Below are positions 3,286-55,261 of a stretch of 64,000 nt of DNA, one piece after another (positions within the stretch are counted from its first letter, which is position 1; every line of letters begins with the position of its first letter). Source of the DNA: Catenuloplanes sp. NPDC051500 (GTDB lineage Bacteria; Actinomycetota; Actinomycetes; Mycobacteriales; Micromonosporaceae); NCBI RefSeq assembly GCF_044454585.1, contig NZ_JBITDX010000004.1:240766-304765 (forward strand). Reading direction: 5' to 3'. The notes below the pieces were generated by a model. The model did not search any database and had not been told where the DNA came from. It saw only the letters and a program-made list of their open reading frames with translations. Position numbers and translations under genes: made by a program.

Positions 3286-4803
3286 ATGCAGCAGAGCGGG
3301 CCCACTCAAGTGCCCCACACCGCGCCGGCCCACAGCGCGCCGGCCCACAGCGCGCCGGCCCACAGCTCGGCCCCGGCGCCGAAGCAGCGGAAGCCGGCAC
3401 GCGCCCGGCCCGCCCACGCGGACCCGGTCCCGGACGAGGCGATCGCCCTCATGATCGTCGGCGCGAAGGGCAGCGGCCGGGACGGTGTGCTCGGCGCGCT
3501 CCTCGACGCACCCGGCCCGCTCCTCGACCGGCCCGGCGACAGCTACCTGGTCGTCACGTACGGGCACAGTCGCGACGTGTGCGCCTACGTGCCCGGCAAC
3601 CGCCAGCCGCAGCCGTTCACCCCGGCGCCGCCCGGCGAGGAGTCCGGCGCCCGCCCGCCGCGCCGCATCGAGCTGACGCTGCCCAACCCGCTGCTGCGCC
3701 ACTTCGCGCTCGTCGACACGCCGGACGCGGAGCGCCTCTCCGCCGCCGGCACCCGGATCCTGCTCGACGCCGCCACCCGCGGCGGCGCGGTCCTCTACGT
3801 CGTCTCCGCCGATCACCTGCTGGAGCCGGCCGAGGCCACGCTCCTCGCCGAGCTGCACAAGGCCGGCGTCCACCTGTTCTTCGCGCTCACCCCGGCCGTG
3901 GACGGCGCCTGGGGCGACGGCACCGTCGAGACCGCGATCAGCGACGCGCGCGATGCCGTGATCGCCGCGGTCCCGTCCGCCGTGGACGCGAGCTGGCACA
4001 CGGTCGACCCGGCCATGGGCGACACCGCCTTCCTGCGCCGCGCGCTGAGCGAGTGGTCCGGGCTGGAGGCGCTGGAGCGGGCCAGCATCAACCCGCCGGT
4101 GCCGCCCGGCGCGGGACGCACCGTGCGGATCGCCTCGGACGCGCACCGTTCCGGCTGGGCGGAGCGCCTGGAGGAGATGACCCGTACCAGCGCGCAACTG
4201 ATCCGGCAGCGGCTTGCCATCGAGGTCGCCAACATCCACCTGCGCTGCGTGCAGGAGATCGTGTTCGGCGACGGCTGCGCCGGGCTCCCCGGCGCGCTGG
4301 ACCGGGAGATGCACGCGCTGTCGCTCGCCGCGGTCACGGAGTGCGACGCCGCGGCCGAGAAGATCATCGACGACCTGCTGGAGCTGGTGCTCGACGAGCC
4401 GGCCACCGAGGCGGCCCGCCGCCGGGTGATCGCGGCCGTCCGGGACGGGTTCGCCGACGACCGGGCCGCCCGTGATCTCGAACGGGTGCTGCTGGTGACG
4501 AACACCGGCGGCGTGGCGACAGTGGCAGGCGAGGGCGCGGTGACCGCTCTGACGGCGTACCACACGCCCGGAATTCCGCGCCCGCTTCCGGGGCTCGGCA
4601 TCGGGCTGTCCGGCGCCTGCTACACGTACTGGCGGCATCCGGCGAACCGGGACAACAACCGGGCCCGCTCCTGGCTGCAGCTGGCCATCCGCGGCGTCGA
4701 GCTGGAGTTGCTGCGGGAGATCTCCCGCCGGTTCGAGGCTGTGCAGCGCTCGCTGGGCGGCGTGCTTACCGACGCGGTCGACCACGGCATTCTGCTGAGT
4801 TGA
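3286..4803 (+). CDS. hypothetical protein, possibly a degenerate dynamin/IniA-like GTPase-fold protein with an N-terminal APAHS tandem repeat
   Basis: GGAGG lies 8 nt upstream of ATG 3286. P-loop-like [18 protein letters not shown] and a G3-like LVDTPD are present but degenerate (no GK[ST]). Amino-acid composition looks like real protein, unlike the overlapping Arg-rich antisense ORF. Confidence 0.5.
3321..3365 (+). repeat. 3 x 15-bp perfect tandem repeat (cgcgccggcccacag) encoding (APAHS)3 inside the CDS
   Basis: Seen directly in the sequence. Confidence 0.9.
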
Positions 4804-4859
4804 GCGCTCGTCGTTCGGTCGGTTCCTCACCACAGCGGACTCGGTGGCACGATGGGGAC

Positions 4860-5150
4860 ATGGCGGCGCCGCAGATCGCACCGGAGAAGACGCCAGACAT
4901 CGAAGAACTCCCGGCCGAGGACCGTCCGTGGGTCACGATCGTCTGGGACGACCCGGTCAATCTCATGACGTATGTGACATGGGTTTTCCAGAAGCTGTTC
5001 GGATACAGCAGGGAGAAGGCCGAGGAGTTGATGCTGGCGGTCCACCACAAGGGCAGGGCCGTCGTGTCCACCGGCACGCGCGAGCGCATGGAGCACGACG
5101 CCTCCCAGCTGCATGCCTATGGTTTGTGGGCGACGGTGGACCGGCAGTGA
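4860..5150 (+). CDS. clpS: ATP-dependent Clp protease adaptor ClpS
   Basis: [47 protein letters not shown] is the ClpS core. The internal ATG at 4860 is preferred over the TTG at 4800. Confidence 0.85.
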
Positions 5151-5259
5151 GCAATTTTCAACCTGGCGAGCGGGCCGACGCCACGGAGGAGTCCACCGGG
5201 CGGGCGCGCACGAGTCGGGACCGCGTTGAAAAAGGCTCAGTGACGGGGGGAGACCGATA

Positions 5260-5757
5260 ATGTTCCGGCGCCAGGGGCCGCATTGCGTGGCCAGCTTCGC
5301 CCAGGACGAGGTGCGCGTGCTGCGCAAGGTCGCGGGCGAGGTCGTGGGCCTGCTCACGGACGGCTTCGACCACGACGACCCGGTTGTCGACCGGCTCTTT
5401 CCGGCGATCTACCCGGACGAGCCGGCCGAGAGCGAGGAGGTCCGCCGCTACACCGAGGGCGACCTGAAGACCGCGAAGATCGACCAGGCCGGCGCGATCC
5501 TCGCCGGGCTGCCCTCCGAGGGCTCGGGCGACGTGGCGCTCGACGCGGAGGAGGCCGAGGCCTGGCTGCGCGCGATCAACGACGCGCGGCTGGCGATGGG
5601 CATCCGGCTGGAGATCACCGGCGACACCGACCTGGGCGAGGAGCTGGACGACGCGGTCCTGCACGACCCCACGTCCACCCGGGTCTTCCAGCTGTCGGTC
5701 TACGCCTATCTGGGCTACCTGCAGGAGTCGCTCCTGCACGCGCTCATCGACGGGTGA
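5260..5757 (+). CDS. conserved actinobacterial protein (DUF2017-like) that follows clpS
   Basis: 165 aa, acidic. Its position after clpS and before mec/cysO/cysM matches the Mtb Rv1331-Rv1336 neighbourhood. Confidence 0.6.
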   Translation: MFRRQGPHCVASFAQDEVRVLRKVAGEVVGLLTDGFDHDDPVVDRLFPAIYPDEPAESEEVRRYTEGDLKTAKIDQAGAILAGLPSEGSGDVALDAEEAEAWLRAINDARLAMGIRLEITGDTDLGEELDDAVLHDPTSTRVFQLSVYAYLGYLQESLLHALIDG

Positions 5758-5800
5758 CGGCCGCCACGGGCCCGTACCGGGGCGCTCACAGCGAGGTAAA

Positions 5801-6256
5801 GTGGCCGTCGTGCTGACCATTGACCGGGCGATCCTCGATGCGATCGTCGCGCACGCCCGCCGGGACCACCCGGACGAGGCGTGTGGCGTCGTCTCCGGCC
5901 CGGCCGGCAGCGACCGGCCCACCCGGCACATCCCGATGGACAACGCGGCCCGGTCGATGACGTTCTACGAGTTCGACTCGATGGAGCAGCTGCGTGTCTG
6001 GCGCGAGATGGACGACCGCGACGAGGAGCCGGTGGTCATCTACCACTCGCACACCGCCACTGAGGCGTTCCCGTCCCGCACCGACATCTCCTTCGCCGGC
6101 GAGCCCGGGGCACACTACCTGCTGGTCTCCACCCGAGAGCCGGAGTCGGAGGAGATCCGCTCGTTCCGCATCGTGGACGGTCAGGTCACCGAGGAGCCGG
6201 TCGAGGTGCGGGATGGCACCATTGAGCCCATGGAGCTGTTGCCCCATGGTGCCTGA
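5801..6256 (+). CDS. mec: JAMM/MPN+ metalloprotease Mec (CysO-cysteine peptidase)
   Basis: JAMM motif HSHTATEAFPSRTD (HxHx7Sx2D) with an upstream E. GTG start preceded by GAGG. Adjacent to cysO and cysM. Confidence 0.85.
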   Translation: MAVVLTIDRAILDAIVAHARRDHPDEACGVVSGPAGSDRPTRHIPMDNAARSMTFYEFDSMEQLRVWREMDDRDEEPVVIYHSHTATEAFPSRTDISFAGEPGAHYLLVSTREPESEEIRSFRIVDGQVTEEPVEVRDGTIEPMELLPHGA

Positions 6257-6349
6257 TCCCCACGCGGTCCAGTCGTACATGTTCGGCCAGAGTCCGACGA
6301 CGGTCGATTACGAGTGTCGGCGCTGATCCCACGCGCCCGCACGTCGTAA

Positions 6350-7717
<1,368 letters not shown>

Positions 7718-7895
7718 CCTGCAACGACGTGAACCGCCGGGCGGCGGAGGTCCTCAGCCACCGCCCGGCGACGCGCACCACTTCATGTTCGAGGGCTTCG
7801 ACGTGGCCCCGTGTACCAGGTGTTCGGAGCGCGCGGTCGGCCGTGTGAGCCCCGCTGTCGCGCTGGGCGATGCCTTTGTGGAGCGCGTCTGACGG

Positions 7896-8258
7896 TCAGA
7901 TCGCCACCGCGGTCGCGGCCATCGCGGCCGACAGCGGGAACGTGGCCAGCGTGAGCATCAGCCACGGCAGGTGCCGCCTGTGGATCGAGGCGAACGCCCC
8001 GACCGTGAATGCGATCCCGGTCACACCGGTGCCCACGATGGCCGGCTCGTACCAGGAGGGTGCGGCACCGGCGAAGATGGCGGCCAGGCTGCGGATCGCT
8101 ACCGCGAGGCCGAGCACGCCGAGCGTTCCGGCCCAGCAGGACATGGCGAGCAGGCGGCGGGACGACGGCTCGGGGTCGGTCTCGGCAGGCATGCGGAAGG
8201 CCCGCCCGGTGACCGGCTCGCGGCGCTGAGCAGGAAGATCGGCCGTTTCCGTGAACAT
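7896..8258 (-). CDS. small integral membrane protein (about 3 TM helices), hypothetical
   Basis: Hydrophobic C-terminal two-thirds (LAMSCWAGTLGVLGLAVAIRSLAAIFAGAA...LMLTLATFPLSAAMAATAVAI). The start is uncertain (ATG at 8258 or 8192). Confidence 0.4.
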   Translation of the reverse strand: MFTETADLPAQRREPVTGRAFRMPAETDPEPSSRRLLAMSCWAGTLGVLGLAVAIRSLAAIFAGAAPSWYEPAIVGTGVTGIAFTVGAFASIHRRHLPWLMLTLATFPLSAAMAATAVAI

Positions 8259-50377: not shown

Positions 50378-50519
50378 GCTTCGGAGCCGCGACCGCTCCC
50401 GGATGCAAAAGATCGGCACAAAAAGAGTGCGCTACCGCACACCGTTTTTAGACCCGCCAGAGCCGCGCCTGGGCGACCACCGCGACGCGGGGTCTGGGGG
50501 TCGCTTCCAGGAAACTACC

Positions 50520-50601
50520 GTGGGCCGGACGTTGCACCATGCGAACCACCCGATCATCGTCACCGGCGACCCCACTGCCGGGACGTTTGGCCAGTTCAAG
50601 G
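50520..50601. repeat. direct repeat copy A (about 82 bp)
   Basis: gtgggccggacgttgcaccatgcgaaccacccgatcatcgtcaccggcgaccccactgccgggacgtttggccagttcaagg; about 85% identical to 51946..52027. Confidence 0.8.
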
Positions 50602-50662
50602 GGTACTCGACCAGCCCGATAGCCTGATTCAGACCCACCCTCAGCCGCCTCGGAGTGCTGCG

Positions 50663-51229
50663 CTACCAGGCCGGGGGACCAAGATGGCGTCGTACTTCAG
50701 CCGCGAATCTAGGTACGCCGGTGCGTTGCAGAAGGACGAGGACCTCCGGCACGGTGTTCGGCGCACGTCGGTAGGACGCGGCTTGGTGACGGAGCACGTC
50801 CATGGTCAAGCCGGGGTAGAGATCGAGTTGGTCGAGGAGGAAATCGTCGGGGTGGATGGCTGCGATGTCGTAGGGCTTGAGGGCCGGCTCGGGGAAGTCG
50901 CTGAGGTTGAAGGTGACGATGACTTCGGCGTTGGCGCGTACGGCGGCAGCCAGAACGTGTCGGTCCTTCGGATGGTTCGTCATACCGTCGACAAGTGACT
51001 CATAGCCAGTGACCAGGGCGTCGGGGAATGACCGGCTCATCTGGCCAAGCCGCCGATCAACCCGATCCGGTGGTAGCCCGCGCTTGGTGAGGTTGCGACG
51101 TAGTTCGGTGAAGACGTCGGCCGACCAGAGCGGCCGGTATGCGGAGGCTTCGGCGAGGCGAAGCAGGGTGTCGCACAGGTATGCCGGGTAGAGCACGCAG
51201 GTGTCAAGGAACGCGGGAAACGCCACCAT
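50663..51229 (-). CDS. PIN-domain toxin (VapC-like, about 190 aa)
   Basis: FLDTCVLYP at the N-terminus (first acidic residue), DRHVLAAA, TFNLSDF. Confidence 0.75.
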   Translation of the reverse strand: MVAFPAFLDTCVLYPAYLCDTLLRLAEASAYRPLWSADVFTELRRNLTKRGLPPDRVDRRLGQMSRSFPDALVTGYESLVDGMTNHPKDRHVLAAAVRANAEVIVTFNLSDFPEPALKPYDIAAIHPDDFLLDQLDLYPGLTMDVLRHQAASYRRAPNTVPEVLVLLQRTGVPRFAAEVRRHLGPPAW

Positions 51230-51238
51230 GACCGGCTG

Positions 51239-51709
51239 TCACCTCGACGGCGGTGAGTCGAGGGTGATCTCGTACAGGTCGTCGTCCTCGGCGTCGGCTG
51301 CCATCTGGTCCAGGGCGCGGCGGCGTTCGGTGCGGGTGCGTTCGGAGTAGTCGAGGATGTCCCGCAGCAGGACTCGTCGGTGCCGGCCGCGCAGGCTGTG
51401 CGGGATCTCGCCGTCGGTCAGCAGGCGGACCAGCGTAGGTCGTGAGATGTTGAGCAGGTCAGCGGCCTCTTGGGTGGTCAGCATCGTGTTGTGCGGGGCG
51501 ATCGAGATGGCCATGCCCTGGGACAGGGCACCGACGACGTCGCGCAGCAGTTCGTAGAGTTCGGCCGGGATGTCGAGCTGCGAACCGTCCGGGCCCACCA
51601 GCTTCGCTCGGGCGGGGGCCTCGGCGGCGGCCATACCCCGCGCGAAGCGCACCAGGTCGGCGGGGTTTTCAGGTGGCAGAACGGTCCGTTCACGCAGGGT
51701 GCTCGACAT
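51239..51709 (-). CDS. HTH_17 (excisionase/MerR-like) DNA-binding antitoxin partner
   Basis: LTTQEAADLLNISRPTLVRLLTDGEIP...GRHRRVLLRDILDY. A 9-bp gap separates it from the PIN gene. Confidence 0.7.
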   Translation of the reverse strand: MSSTLRERTVLPPENPADLVRFARGMAAAEAPARAKLVGPDGSQLDIPAELYELLRDVVGALSQGMAISIAPHNTMLTTQEAADLLNISRPTLVRLLTDGEIPHSLRGRHRRVLLRDILDYSERTRTERRRALDQMAADAEDDDLYEITLDSPPSR

Positions 51710-51945
51710 GAAGCCAGCATACCGCTATTCGAAAAATCCGAAAGCCGCTACGGCTTGGTGAAGCCCAGCGTGCGATAGCCGGGCATTCGGCGCTGCAGCG
51801 AGACAGCCAGGATCGGCGTCGCCGGGTCGTGCCGGCCACGATGGCAGATCGCCACGATCCCCGACGAACGCAGATCCACCTTCCGGAGCTCCACCAGCAG
51901 CCGACAACAGCGAATCGCCGGGCCGCGGTTCGCATGCAAGATCAA

Positions 51946-52027
51946 AGTGGGCCGGACGTTGCACCATGCGAACCACGCCACCATCGTCCCGGGCCGCCCA
52001 CTATCGGGACGTTTGACCAGCTCAAGC
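51946..52027. repeat. direct repeat copy B
   Basis: gtgggccggacgttgcaccatgcgaaccacgccaccatcgtcccgggccgcccactatcgggacgtttgaccagctcaagcg. Confidence 0.8.
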
Positions 52028-52125
52028 GTTAGACGCTAGCGCTCGGGGCCGTTGACCCCAACAACAGCGGGCTCACCCTCCATGCCGATAGTGGTACCGT
52101 ATTCAGTACCACTTCGGGAGGCATC

Positions 52126-52383
52126 ATGACGTCTGCGATCAGTGCCAGCGAGGCGCGCAAGTCCCTATTTCCACTCATCGAGCGTGTCAACGAGGACCAC
52201 ACCCCGATCGAGATCGTTTCCAAGCGGGGTAACGCCGTCCTGGTGAGCAAGGAGGACTGGGACTCGATCATGGAGACCAACTACCTGCTCCGATCGCCCG
52301 CCAACGCCAAGCGCCTCGTCGAGAGCGTCGAGCAGTGGCGAGCCGGCCGAGCCACCGAACGCGAGTTCGGCCCCGAGGAGTGA
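52126..52383 (+). CDS. yefM: YefM/Phd-family antitoxin
   Basis: SASEARKSLFPLIERVNEDHTPIEIVSKRGNAVLVSKEDWDSIMETNYLLRSP. Confidence 0.85.
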   Translation: MTSAISASEARKSLFPLIERVNEDHTPIEIVSKRGNAVLVSKEDWDSIMETNYLLRSPANAKRLVESVEQWRAGRATEREFGPEE

Positions 52384-52640
52384 AACTCAGCTGGACCGAC
52401 CACGCCTGGGACGACTACCTGTACTGGCAGACCCAGGACCGCAAAACCCTCAAACGCATCAACGCGCTGATCGCCGACATCAAACGCGACCCCGACGGCC
52501 AGGGCATCGGCAAGCCGGAGATCCTCCGAAACAACCTCGCCGGACTCCGGTCCCGTCGCATCGATGACGAGCACCGCATGGTGTACGCCGTCGAGCCCAG
52601 CGAGATCTCCATCATCTCCTGCCGATACCACTACGAGTAG
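52380..52640 (+). CDS. yoeB: YoeB/Txe-family toxin (mRNA interferase)
   Basis: LSWTDHAWDDYLYWQ...RINALIADIKRDP...GIGKPE...HRMVYAV...CRYHY. GTGA overlap with yefM. Confidence 0.85.
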   Translation: MKLSWTDHAWDDYLYWQTQDRKTLKRINALIADIKRDPDGQGIGKPEILRNNLAGLRSRRIDDEHRMVYAVEPSEISIISCRYHYE

Positions 52641-52661
52641 GTCAGGCCTTATCGTTGCTGC

Positions 52662-53799
52662 TCAGCGGCGTTTGGCGAACTCTGCCAAGCGCTCGCTGAG
52701 CGGGCTCACCCGTGGGCGCGGTGGCCGATCGAAGTAGCCCGGCTTGATCTCGCGCATCAGCGTCTCACCGTCCCGGTTCCAGTCGAACCGTGGCCTCTTC
52801 AACAGCCGCCGGAACACGACACTCGCCTTCTCGGGATCTCGAGCAGCCAGCCGGCGCAGGACCATCGGCTCCACACTGTCGTCCTCGATGTAGGACAGCG
52901 TCTGCTCGCGCCACCGGCGGCGCCGCAACAGGTCGGGGTTCGCGAACGCTTCCTCCAGGAGGCCGAACTCCGCGTAGAAGCCGAGTCCGTCCGTCTCGTC
53001 GTAGATCAGCGCAACCGTTTCCGCATCGGTCACCTCCGGCGGCAACGACATCGACACCGCCGGAGGGACGTCCTTCGGGTCCGGCCCGAGAACCGTGTTC
53101 ACGGCAGTAGGTGTAGTAGCCGTCGAGCCGCTCCTGTGCCTGTTCCCCCGGGACCACCAGAAGGTCGGTGCCGAAGAACTCGACGAACCGTGCCCGGTCA
53201 GCACGCTGATGCTTCCACGCCATTGCCATCTTGTCCGGGTTCCGGAACACCGCTTCCGGCGTACGCAAAGACATGTCCAGCGCGAGTCGATAGGCGATGT
53301 CCCGTTCGCTCCCGCGGAGAATCTGTACCGGCCCGCTCAGCATCCACTCGTCACCGACAGCGACCAGCCGGGCGATGATGAACGAGTGGCGCGGCATCTG
53401 CTTGAACACGGCCGGGCCCATGTTCGATCTAACCCGATAGGTCAAGTCGTCGACGAGGCTCTCCACCAGGAGCGCGGGCCCGTCCTTGCGCTGCACCTCG
53501 AACGGGCCCTGCACCACGTCGCGCCAGCCGAGCACCATCTCCCGTTCGGCCTCCGGCAGGTCCGGCCGGGCCTCGACGAACTGCTCCACCACCGTCCGGC
53601 CGTTCGCCAACCGGTGCTCCAGCACGAAACAGTCCCAGAGCAGCATCCACCGCTGCTCATCGGCGTCTTCGCGGCCGTTGCCGTACTGGGCCAGAAAACT
53701 CGACGCAGCCCGGTTGTAGCGGGGCTGCTGAGAAAACGCCACCAGCTCGCCCTTGAGGTCACCCGCCCGTCGGAGCAGCGCGGCATCAGACATCGACAT
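52662..53799 (-). pseudogene. hypothetical protein gene (about 380 aa) disrupted by a frameshift near 53090-53110
   Basis: Frame A (53799 to about 53080) gives a protein-like sequence up to ...ERLDGYYTY, then Arg/Gly-rich nonsense. Frame B becomes protein-like from ...NTVLGPDPKDVPP down to the stop at 52662. Confidence 0.45.
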
Positions 53800-53856
53800 A
53801 CCACCAACCTATGAGCTGCCGGAGTCAGACCGGCACGGGGTGCCTCGTTCGGGTGG

Positions 53857-55086
53857 TCAGTCGGTCAGATATCGAGCGAGGCGTTCGGCGTTGAGTCCCC
53901 GCATCGCGTCCTCCACGGCTTCCGAGTCGGAGAGATCGATACCACGGGCCGTCAGCTCCGCGGCGATCTGCTTGGCCGGACCCCACGCCGCCGTGTCGTC
54001 GAACGCCTCCTCGAACGCGGGAAGGAACGTGTCGACAGCCTCGATCACCGGACTGATCCATACCGGGTCGACCGCACGGTGTTCCAGGGCGTACCGGATC
54101 CAGCGTCGCAACACGTCCGGCAGCGCGGCACGCTGCTCAGCGTCCAGCGCCGCCTTGCGCGGCAACCAGTCGGCCAGGAACAAGCCGACCTGTCCTGGGC
54201 TCCAGCACAGCGGACCGCTGGTCATGTAGCCGGCACCGTAATCCAGGAACAGGTCGGCCAGCGACCTGGCGACCGTGTCGTCGGCCGGCGCGAATCCGTC
54301 CAGCAGTCGTTGCCGTTCCTCATCGTCCATCGGCTGCCAGTCACGGAAGTCCGGCAGGTACGGAAGGCATCGTGACCAGGCCATCGCCCGCAAGTCGAGG
54401 AAGTCCTCGTCATCGTGGCGGGGCCAGGTCATGTCCGTGGTCCGCAGCGCGTCCGCCAGCTCCGCCAGCGCCACCTCGACCGGGCACTCGACGGCCGGCA
54501 TCGGCACCTCGTCGGGCTCACGCAGCCGATCCCAGGTCTCCGCAGCCCCGGGCTGCAGTAACGCCAGCTTGTCGACCAGCACACCGCCGGCGAGGGAGAT
54601 CTGCGCCATCAACGTGTGCGGAGTCTGCCCGGCGAACTCGACGAACAGCACATGCTCGCTGTCCCAGACATCCACCGCTCGCCACGCCCGAACCGGCTCA
54701 AAGACAGGCGCCTCGAACCACGATGGCACAGGCTGACTCTCCGACAAGATCTCCAGGGTGCCATCCAGCATCGACCACTCACCAGGAGCGCCGACACGGC
54801 GCAGCGCCGCCACCGCGGCCAGCCCGTGCGGCAACGGCCGGGTCGACGCCCGGCCCACCACCTCCAGGTGGAACATCTTCTCCGGGTCACGCTCGCCGAG
54901 CCCCGCGGCCGACCATGCCGCGCCGAGCCACTCACTGGCCCACCGCTCCACCTCGAGCACACTGTCCTCGGACACGATCGTCACCGCGTCACGCATCAAC
55001 CGGTCCGACAGCCGCAACTCCCGCACCGGGCGCTGCGGACGCCTCGGCTTACCTCGTCCCGCGGGACGACCACGACTCTTAGGCAT
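53857..55086 (-). CDS. hypothetical acidic protein (410 aa)
   Basis: Protein-like composition with no recognisable motif. Start at Met-23 (MPKSRGRP). Confidence 0.5.
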   Translation of the reverse strand: MPKSRGRPAGRGKPRRPQRPVRELRLSDRLMRDAVTIVSEDSVLEVERWASEWLGAAWSAAGLGERDPEKMFHLEVVGRASTRPLPHGLAAVAALRRVGAPGEWSMLDGTLEILSESQPVPSWFEAPVFEPVRAWRAVDVWDSEHVLFVEFAGQTPHTLMAQISLAGGVLVDKLALLQPGAAETWDRLREPDEVPMPAVECPVEVALAELADALRTTDMTWPRHDDEDFLDLRAMAWSRCLPYLPDFRDWQPMDDEERQRLLDGFAPADDTVARSLADLFLDYGAGYMTSGPLCWSPGQVGLFLADWLPRKAALDAEQRAALPDVLRRWIRYALEHRAVDPVWISPVIEAVDTFLPAFEEAFDDTAAWGPAKQIAAELTARGIDLSDSEAVEDAMRGLNAERLARYLTD

Positions 55087-55186
55087 GTACCCATTTACCG
55101 CATTCAGCCCGGCACAACGCCCGAGCGACCCGCGGTTCGTGCAATGCCACATTCAACCAGCACGAACACGCAGGCCATGCGCAGAG

Positions 55187-55261
55187 TGGGGCCGGCGGGA
55201 CTCGAACCCGCACTGGAACGGACCTAAACCGTTTGCCTCCTGCCAATTGGGCTACGGCCCC
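55187..55261 (-). tRNA. tRNA-like gene with predicted anticodon UAG (Leu-decoding) but class-I architecture (5-nt variable loop, 3-bp D-stem); possibly an atypical or pseudo-tRNA
   Basis: Reverse complement GGGGCCGTAGCCCAATTGGCAGGAGGCAAACGGTTTAGGTCCGTTCCAGTGCGGGTTCGAGTCCCGCCGGCCCCa. It has a perfect 7-bp acceptor stem, a T-arm GCGGG-TTCGAGT-CCCGC and an anticodon arm AACGG-TTTAGGT-CCGTT. CCA is not encoded. Confidence 0.6.

Follow-up and report, generated by a model that had tools for sequence, protein, structure and literature searches.

We report that a ~90-nt repeat, present in two direct copies on either side of an HTH_17/PIN_3 gene pair in a 64,000-nt stretch of the genome of Catenuloplanes sp. 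NPDC051500 (contig NZ_JBITDX010000004.1, positions 240,766 to 304,765; this whole stretch is referred to as the window), belongs to a family of repeats that close small gene modules lined up behind tRNA genes. The repeats are probably att-type (attachment) sites of modules that lack an integrase, have accreted in tandem at a tRNA gene and would be recombined by an integrase supplied in trans.

The pair had been described in the original prediction as two 82-nt copies, about 85% identical and with identical first 30 bp. Pairwise alignment confirmed this similarity and divided it into a block of 53 nt (50520-50572 and 51947-51999, 87% identity) and, past a 1-nt indel, a block of 35 nt (50571-50605 and 51997-52031, 83% identity), although copy 2 begins at 51947 instead of 51946 and the copies are ~86 nt long instead of 82. 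The 30-mer GTGGGCCGGACGTTGCACCATGCGAACCAC occurs exactly twice in the window (50520-50549 and 51947-51976), and 100 dinucleotide-preserving shuffles yielded no match with three or fewer mismatches. The peptide WFAWCNVRPT, encoded across the repeats, had been judged no convincing gene, and rightly so; it is an artefact of nucleotide conservation, and the indels between the copies are not multiples of three.

The element of ~90 nt has, on the minus strand, the form (G/T)TGAGCTGGTCAAACGTCC, a variable segment and then GGTTCGCATGGTGCAACGTCCGGCCCAC. We searched 185,579 species genomes with the repeat core, leaving third-codon positions free, and found the core in 36 stretches, with one to three exact matches per genome that often lay on one contig. 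All but one of these stretches (35/36) come from Actinoplanes, Paractinoplanes, Jidongwangia or Pseudosporangium and the remaining one from a metagenome-assembled genome (MAG) of an unclassified member of the Actinomycetota; all assigned sources, like the window, are Micromonosporaceae. In addition, 18 metagenome contigs contain the exact core. It had no match in the viral contigs, phage records or plasmids searched, and a phage or plasmid attP was rejected as a candidate on this basis. A 91-nt profile built from the copies found detected 82 copies in 55 sources (genomes or contigs, labelled with L-numbers such as L001, L012 and L025), with one to six copies found per genome. Within each source the copies share a single orientation (55/55) and are clustered 0.65-5 kb apart, as in the arrays of L013 (five copies in 7 kb) and L048 (four copies). 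The original prediction had set a cassette boundary against a repeat scattered genome-wide, and the copies found here are few and tied each time to inserted genes. A literature search found no paper that describes this repeat.

In an alignment of 59 copies, mean column conservation rises from 0.47 in the upstream flank to 0.72 over the 5′ part of the repeat (54 nt) and 0.96 in the 29-nt core, where it is high at all codon positions, and falls to 0.41 downstream of CCCAC. The similarity among copies stops at one nucleotide, directly after ...CCGGCCCAC (CCCAC). A near-invariant core beside a diverging remainder argues for a selected function, presumably the binding of a protein. Two observations were made at the margins of the family. 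A weak partial repeat with the 5′ box only (E = 0.01) lies in A. derwentensis (L037, 9662-9701), ~300 nt upstream of the orthologue of the glycosyltransferase gene that adjoins the window's array, and may be the scar of a lost array. Beside the array of a MAG (L016, ~4000-7900), near-identical short open reading frames (ORFs; LAVERFGFGELALLGVPASEDQGEVWV..., VARSCGLQIKSLRVGDAVVACVPASERKGEV...) reflect a tandem DNA repeat with a few hundred bp per unit.

Downstream of CCCAC, the sequences fall into few types, hereafter called left ends. The alpha type (CCTGGGGGCGACCCCCAGACCCCACG...) follows 13 repeat copies, as well as tRNA-Met in L003; the beta type starts with GTTGATCTTGCATGCGAACC..., and the gamma type consists of a TGACCTGCG hairpin followed by ...GTGGCATTGCGCGAACC. 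An ...TTGCGCGAACC element lies ~40 nt past the junction in ~20 junctions. All three types also stand directly after a tRNA 3′ end in ...CCCAC (GGTTCGAGTCC...CCCAC at the array head). Gamma follows tRNA-Lys in L012, where it is tRNA-Lys(UUU), and in L034, beta follows tRNA-Met in L025 and L031 and tRNA-Ala in L022, and in the window a gamma left end begins at once after the tRNA at 55187-55261. The exchange is also seen in L006, where a repeat followed by gamma and a 431-aa ORF takes the place of the window's tRNA followed by gamma and a 431-aa ORF. At each of the nine visible array heads, the repeats are co-oriented with a tRNA gene, and the island starts at the intact 3′ end of that tRNA (the window tRNA; tRNA-Met, -Lys or -Ala in L003, L012, L020, L022, L025, L031, L034 and L055). 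Because the same left ends are found behind tRNAs and behind repeats, we conclude that the repeat stands in for the tRNA 3′ end at internal junctions.

The modules are 0.65-5 kb long, and each ends in one repeat copy and contains no integrase. In 35 complete intervals we counted 96 candidate ORFs, among which type II toxin-antitoxin (TA) families predominate; the Pfam matches comprise PhdYeFM (7), YoeB (6), Gp49/HigB-like (6), PIN (6), HTH_17 (5), HTH_3 (5), PIN_3 (4), ParE (3), HicA (2) and AEP-TOTE, a primase-helicase system (2). With a tRNA or repeat at one end, a repeat at the other and only TA or defence genes as cargo, the modules have the make-up of integrase-less satellites. The cargo genes occur in either orientation relative to the repeat, as illustrated by YoeB/YefM in L013 compared with the window and L055. 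Because the orientation of the cargo is free, that of the repeat is a property of the array and not of transcription units.

On the minus strand, the window reads tRNA, gamma left end, 431-aa and 344-aa ORFs, YoeB/YefM, repeat 2, beta left end with remnants, HTH_17, PIN_3, repeat 1, alpha-type sequence and the upstream region of the glycosyltransferase gene (coordinates in Table 1). In the variable part of the repeat, identity is 80% among copies with a common upstream flank and 68% among those that have only the downstream flank in common, against a background of 66%. Because the variable part tracks the tRNA-proximal cargo, the unit consists of a left end, cargo and one repeat, and repeat 2 therefore belongs to the YefM/YoeB-containing module 1, of which it is the distal end, with its core GGTTCGCATGGTGCAACGTCCGGCCCAC ending at 51947. 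Repeat 1 is the distal end of module 2, and its subtype travels with the HTH/PIN cargo. The idea that this cargo is bracketed by two repeats of its own had to be abandoned.

The units have been reassorted. The HTH/PIN unit with its repeat subtype is followed elsewhere by at least five downstream types (alpha, beta, two gamma variants and unique sequences), and the junction with the downstream neighbour falls at the same nucleotide in every case; at least five different units, as well as tRNA-Met and tRNA-Ala, are found in front of the beta left end. Between the window's HTH/PIN unit and its copies in other genera-level lineages, identity is 93-96%, whereas the best homologue of the adjacent core glycosyltransferase reaches only 85% protein identity, and this difference argues for horizontal spread. 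The earlier view of a small mobile cassette thus holds in that a cassette-like unit has moved and is found in other genomes beside at least five unrelated downstream sequences; it had not included the link to an array or the deletion described below.

Between the two copies, only the PIN and HTH_17 genes had been expected. Both are there, together with ~237 nt (51710-51946) of remnants and a left end. A full-length version of the unit is present in L025, L027, L030 and L031, where a beta left end is followed by 5 kb that end in a repeat, in the order 104-aa ORF, 391-aa ORF, 799-aa AEP-TOTE primase plus superfamily 2 (SF2) helicase, HTH_17, PIN_3 and repeat. In alignments of the window with L025, positions 50520-51831 correspond to 6675-5363, 51831-51908 to 1804-1726 and 51872-51958 to 1577-1492. 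Because the window aligns to both ends of the L025 unit, the 3.56 kb in between have been deleted, and window module 2 is, to judge from these alignments, a decayed copy of the 5-kb TOTE module in which the HTH/PIN pair is left. A 78-aa ORF across repeat 2 (51748-51984) is a chimera of module remnants.

Clues to a recombinase come from the array ends and from the beta junction. In L001, L007, L032 and L056, decayed tyrosine-integrase genes lie at array ends, and their 3′ end abuts the CCCAC end of a repeat; L001 has Cys in place of the catalytic Tyr, and in L032 the gene is internally deleted. Homologues of these remnants have the same geometry against tRNA-Thr in A. teichomyceticus and against tRNA-Met in a Micromonospora. 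The intact beta junction forms a dyad, GGTTCGCATGG..CAACGT-CCGGCCC-ACGTTG..CATGCGAACC, with a 7-nt centre (z = -2.3), a layout of the kind that would be expected of a tyrosine-recombinase core site. In the window, the first base of beta within this dyad is mutated (G>T).

We propose that each module is a small integrative unit composed of a left end (alpha, beta or gamma), cargo and a right end of ~90 bp. The repeat would provide a module-borne att arm plus the core, and the left end would provide the other arm. The 29-nt core takes the position that the tRNA 3′ end holds at the array head, and because of this position each insertion would recreate a docking site behind itself, and modules stack in one orientation. 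A tyrosine integrase in trans would exchange strands in or beside CCGGCCC; recombination between successive sites would yield a circle in which one repeat is joined to the module's own left end, and this circle could re-enter behind any tRNA-type or repeat-type site. If the window copies recombined, the circle would join repeat 1 to the beta end, with ...CCGGCCCAC followed directly by TTTGATCTTGCATGCG. We infer the enzyme, the position of the crossover and any present-day activity, and likewise excision of the module between its two flanking repeats and mobility in the source genome as such. The data show the repeat family, its arrays and their common orientation, the exact junction, the equivalence with tRNA ends, the reassortment of modules, the integrase remnants and the deletion.

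Several results weigh against this proposal. Neither tblastn nor a profile from 120 homologues detected an integrase-like ORF in the window; the 35 complete modules likewise contain none, and no intact integrase lies beside any array examined. All 120 closest homologues of the integrase remnant are themselves short C-terminal fragments (88-214 aa), and what we see may be a fossil system. As a tRNA fragment the repeat cannot be recognised: it has no Rfam tRNA match and no significant similarity to tRNAs in global comparison. Only GGTTCG and ~8 terminal nt (CGGCCCAC) are common to it and tRNA-Lys, and the overlap with tRNA-Met or tRNA-Ala is smaller still, which would be little identity for the classical overlap region of one integrase acting across several tRNAs. 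The beta dyad has 28 nt between its outer arms, a spacing far wider than that of canonical core sites, and the alpha left end has no such dyad. We found no clean empty site for the window's module: L012 and L026, which answer to the strains lacking the TA module that the original prediction had called for, retain module 1 and repeat 2 at 91% identity without the HTH/PIN unit, but they also differ downstream. At the other edge, by the glycosyltransferase gene, three related genomes have both this gene and the hairpin upstream of it and unrelated DNA beyond, which gives no clean before/after pair. Finally, neither a circular form nor a deletion variant was observed.

The genomes with fragment-only homologues of the integrase remnant include complete Micromonospora and Actinoplanes genomes; such fragments lie in L040 (8001-8586) and L041 (8001-8703), the two examples checked are tail-to-tail with tRNA-Thr and tRNA-Met, and no full-length close relative is among the homologues. 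A tRNA pseudogene was also considered and rejected. The repeat has a distal end, ...CCGGCCCAC, like that of the tRNAs and contains GGTTCG, but local alignments to six tRNAs are mostly within the range of shuffled sequences (p = 0.008-0.8, z from -0.8 to 3.2).

The decay of every integrase seen at the arrays would fit an account in which the repeats are scars of old tRNA integrations that no longer undergo site-specific recombination, with modules now gained, lost and shuffled by homologous recombination between repeats and left ends serving as portable homology, and the core kept uniform by gene conversion. Window module 2, with its 3.56-kb deletion and the mutated beta dyad, is itself decaying, and in L022 the body of the repeat that follows PIN resembles that of the other subtype, as would result from a crossover or conversion inside the repeat. 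We nevertheless consider a purely fossil array unlikely: conversion should homogenise whole repeats, whereas only the 29-nt core is near-invariant and the adjacent 54 nt diverge and track the cargo, and this account sits poorly with a junction that falls on the same nucleotide in every copy and corresponds to the tRNA end, and with the near-identity (93-96%) of modules that stand behind different tRNAs in divergent hosts.

TA-rich arrays of co-oriented cassettes of 0.65-5 kb also bring to mind an integron-like platform with other chemistry, in which the repeat and left end would fold as single-stranded DNA (in the style of attC or IS200/IS605) and be processed by an unrecognised recombinase with tRNA-like docking. 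The core is able to pair with GCGAACC and TTGC elements of the beta and gamma left ends, and hairpins lie ~8 nt past the junction in alpha and gamma left ends. Such a platform appears very unlikely to us, given that there is no IntI-like or HUH gene near any array examined, that neither covariation nor a supported fold was found within the repeat, that the fold z-scores of the junctions are weak (-2.3 to -0.1) and that the cassette genes occur in both orientations. Moreover, the sole recombinase relics are ordinary tRNA-type tyrosine integrases.

The repeat might instead act in cis as a terminator, insulator, small RNA or shared TA operator. On the minus strand, terminator-like hairpins follow both window copies, and gamma left ends contain a -35-like TTGACC; the hairpin after copy 1, however, belongs to the conserved 5′ region of the glycosyltransferase gene, the orientation of the repeat goes with the tRNA and the array and not with the cargo genes, and the same repeat closes modules with unrelated cargo. 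An RNA element was rejected because Rfam searches gave nothing beyond a chance match (E = 8.5) and single-copy folds were no better than those of shuffles. RNAalifold found only an invariant 8-pair stem without covariation, and the internal hairpin was 64.8% paired compared with 64.3% in shuffles. Lacking an Rfam family, a consensus structure and covariation, a regulatory role for the repeat is in our estimation highly improbable.

The idea of a generic dispersed repeat (a repetitive extragenic palindromic (REP) element or miniature inverted-repeat transposable element (MITE)), of a short coding exon (WFAWCNVRPT / VGRTLHHANH) or of an Xer/dif-type site can practically be set aside, even though short ORFs run through both window copies and the core GGTTCGCATGG presumably bears a loose likeness to the XerC arm of E. 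coli dif. All copies found lie in arrays, and REP or MITE elements were rejected on the one to three exact matches per genome and the uniform orientation, the profile having been run through no complete genome in full. A coding exon is ruled out by frame-breaking indels and by invariance at the nucleotide level. An Xer/dif site has 28 bp, with two 11-bp arms around a 6-bp centre. Both spacing and sequence rule out such a site here, since the dyad arms are 28 nt and not 6 nt apart and the repeat does not resemble the proposed actinobacterial (Frankia) dif, CACGCCGATAATGCACATTATGTCAAGT (PMC3025954).

Tandem islands with att repeats behind tRNA or transfer-messenger RNA (tmRNA) genes, some of them without an integrase, are already known, as in the ssrA islands of Dehalococcoides (PMC3146451) and in the Islander catalogue (PMC4383910). 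They share with the arrays described here the succession of several units behind one small-RNA gene, a direct repeat that stands for the 3′ end of that gene, additional conserved nucleotides beside the repeat that do not align with the RNA gene, and integrase genes whose 3′ end lies against attL. In contrast, the repeat of the present family is ~90 bp long and shares only ~5-9 terminal nt with the tRNA, one repeat family is found behind four tRNAs, and the 0.65-5 kb TA/defence units are all without an integrase; Dehalococcoides employs a serine recombinase (PMC3146451), unlike the tyrosine-type remnants seen here. Unusual features are the small cassettes with TA-dominated cargo, the 90-bp repeat that shares few terminal bases with the tRNA, the recurrence of one repeat and its left ends behind four different tRNAs, and conservation across a bacterial family.

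Cis-mobilizable elements (CIMEs) of the Streptococcus ICESt1/ICESt3 family have functional att sites and no integration or transfer genes, and arise from tandem integration and decay (PMC5704250). The modules studied here resemble them as integrase-less units that a neighbour's integrase might mobilise, as the reassortment seen between genomes suggests. They differ in that no cognate intact integrative and conjugative element (ICE) or integrative and mobilizable element (IME) was identified; it is also unusual how many units an array contains and that one att-like sequence is conserved genus-wide.

Integrons, which are reported to be absent from this phylum (PMC4889954), have in common with these arrays the co-oriented cassettes of one or two genes, the family-specific repeats of 60-130 bp, the occurrence of the same cassette at different array positions and the TA and defence cargo known from sedentary chromosomal integrons (PMC4889954; bioRxiv 10.1101/2024.07.02.601686). 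The arrays differ from integrons in that the window contains no IntI, a tRNA 3′ end instead of attI heads the array, and the cassette genes occur in both orientations, apparently with their own promoters. The attC sites of integrons are imperfect palindromes (R''-L''/L'-R') conserved in structure rather than in sequence; our structure tests detected no attC-type imperfect palindrome in the repeat, which is conserved in sequence.

Stacking at tRNA genes, repeats, fragmented integrases and some primase/helicase modules are likewise seen in the tycheposons of Prochlorococcus (bioRxiv 10.1101/2020.12.28.424599). Tycheposons, however, are larger, intact ones carry their own tyrosine recombinase, and their repeats are true partial tRNAs. 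The pdif modules of Acinetobacter are small, often TA pairs, found in many contexts and bounded by short recombinase sites, namely inverted pairs of 28-bp XerC/D sites on plasmids. The repeats described here are direct, ~90 bp long, chromosomal, tRNA-linked and not dif-like.

Table 1. Features of the array in the window and, in the last row, the genes that precede HTH_17 in the full-length unit of L025
Feature	Position	Strand	Evidence and remarks
tRNA heading the array	55187-55261	minus	ARAGORN; Rfam tRNA model 54.4 bits; proximal junction at 3′ end ...CCGGCCCCA(C)
Gamma left end of module 1	55134-55185 (52 nt)	minus	TCTGCGCATGGCCTGCGTGTTCGTGCTGGTTGAATGTGGCATTGCACGAACC; homologue after repeat in L006, after tRNA-Lys in L012
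Module 1 cargo	52032-55133	minus (array orientation)	two large ORFs, YefM and YoeB
431-aa ORF	53857-55152	minus	first gene of module 1
344-aa ORF	52765-53799	minus	travels with the 431-aa ORF, also in L006, L012 and L026
YoeB	52380-52640	plus	Pfam YoeB_toxin; NCBIfam
YefM	52126-52383	plus	Pfam PhdYeFM_antitox; NCBIfam
Repeat copy 2	51947-52033 (profile extent; pairwise 51947-52031)	minus	nhmmer 81 bits
Start of module 2	51710-51946	minus	beta left end (TTTGATCTTGCATGCGAACC...), 104-aa ORF fragments, 3′ fragment of primase-helicase gene
Hairpin and T-run	51742-51756	minus	upstream of HTH gene
HTH_17 protein, 156 aa	51239-51709	minus	Pfam HTH_17 2e-13; TIGR01764 'excise' 45 bits (cut-off 28.8); PHROG excisionase/HTH
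PIN_3 protein, 188 aa	50663-51229	minus	Pfam PIN_3 5.5e-09; NCBIfam RSP_2648-family PIN 2e-34, below family cut-off
Repeat copy 1	50520-50609 (profile extent; ~86 nt by pairwise alignment, 50520-50605)	minus	nhmmer 80 bits
Alpha-type sequence	50446-50519	minus	(..CCTGGAAGCGACCCCCAGACCCCGCGTCGCGGTGGTCGC..); last island piece before chromosomal DNA
Genes preceding HTH in the full-length unit	L025 1591-5446		104-aa, 391-aa (no family match) and 799-aa ORFs

The remaining features of the window are as follows (Table 1). The tRNA that heads the array has the anticodon UAG (Leu codon CUA), yet it has a class I shape with a short variable arm; bacterial tRNA-Leu usually has a long variable arm. The block 51947-55209 is ~91% identical to L012 and L026. 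The two large proteins of module 1 (431 and 344 aa) had no match in Pfam, NCBIfam, PADLOC, PHROGs or the PDB. The yefM stop and the likely yoeB start overlap (GTGA, 52380-52383), which is the usual translational coupling of a YefM/YoeB pair.

In module 2, the HTH_17 gene lies 9 nt upstream of the PIN_3 gene on the minus strand. The two have a type II TA layout and are kept together in L022, L025, L027, L030, L031 and L035; HTH_17 is presumed to be the antitoxin and PIN_3 the toxin. As a member of the excisionase family, the putative antitoxin could be, or double as, a recombination directionality factor. The alpha piece beyond repeat 1 would either be what is left of the left end of a lost module or form the distal arm of the array. 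Upstream of the glycosyltransferase gene, homology with three other genomes ends at ~50445. A hairpin with a T-run at 50426-50443, just upstream of the glycosyltransferase gene, is kept in A. derwentensis, P. abujensis and Actinoplanes sp. CA-252034, and because it is kept in these three genomes we assign it to the 5′ region of that gene and not to the island.

Our tentative extension of these findings is that the Micromonosporaceae might possess an undescribed integron-like platform made of tRNA-type parts, in which ~90-bp sites mimic a tRNA 3′ end, docking is regenerated with each insertion, and cassettes are stacked, excised and exchanged among tRNA loci and genera by an integrase in trans. 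The repeat family is a precise marker of island boundaries whether or not the array is a fossil, and it accounts for the clustering of TA pairs behind tRNA genes in these genomes. If the sites are active, they would offer actinomycetes a simple modular route to gather and exchange TA and anti-phage modules, and they would make available a defined ~90-bp site with a small cargo unit, perhaps usable for site-specific insertion in Actinoplanes-type producers.

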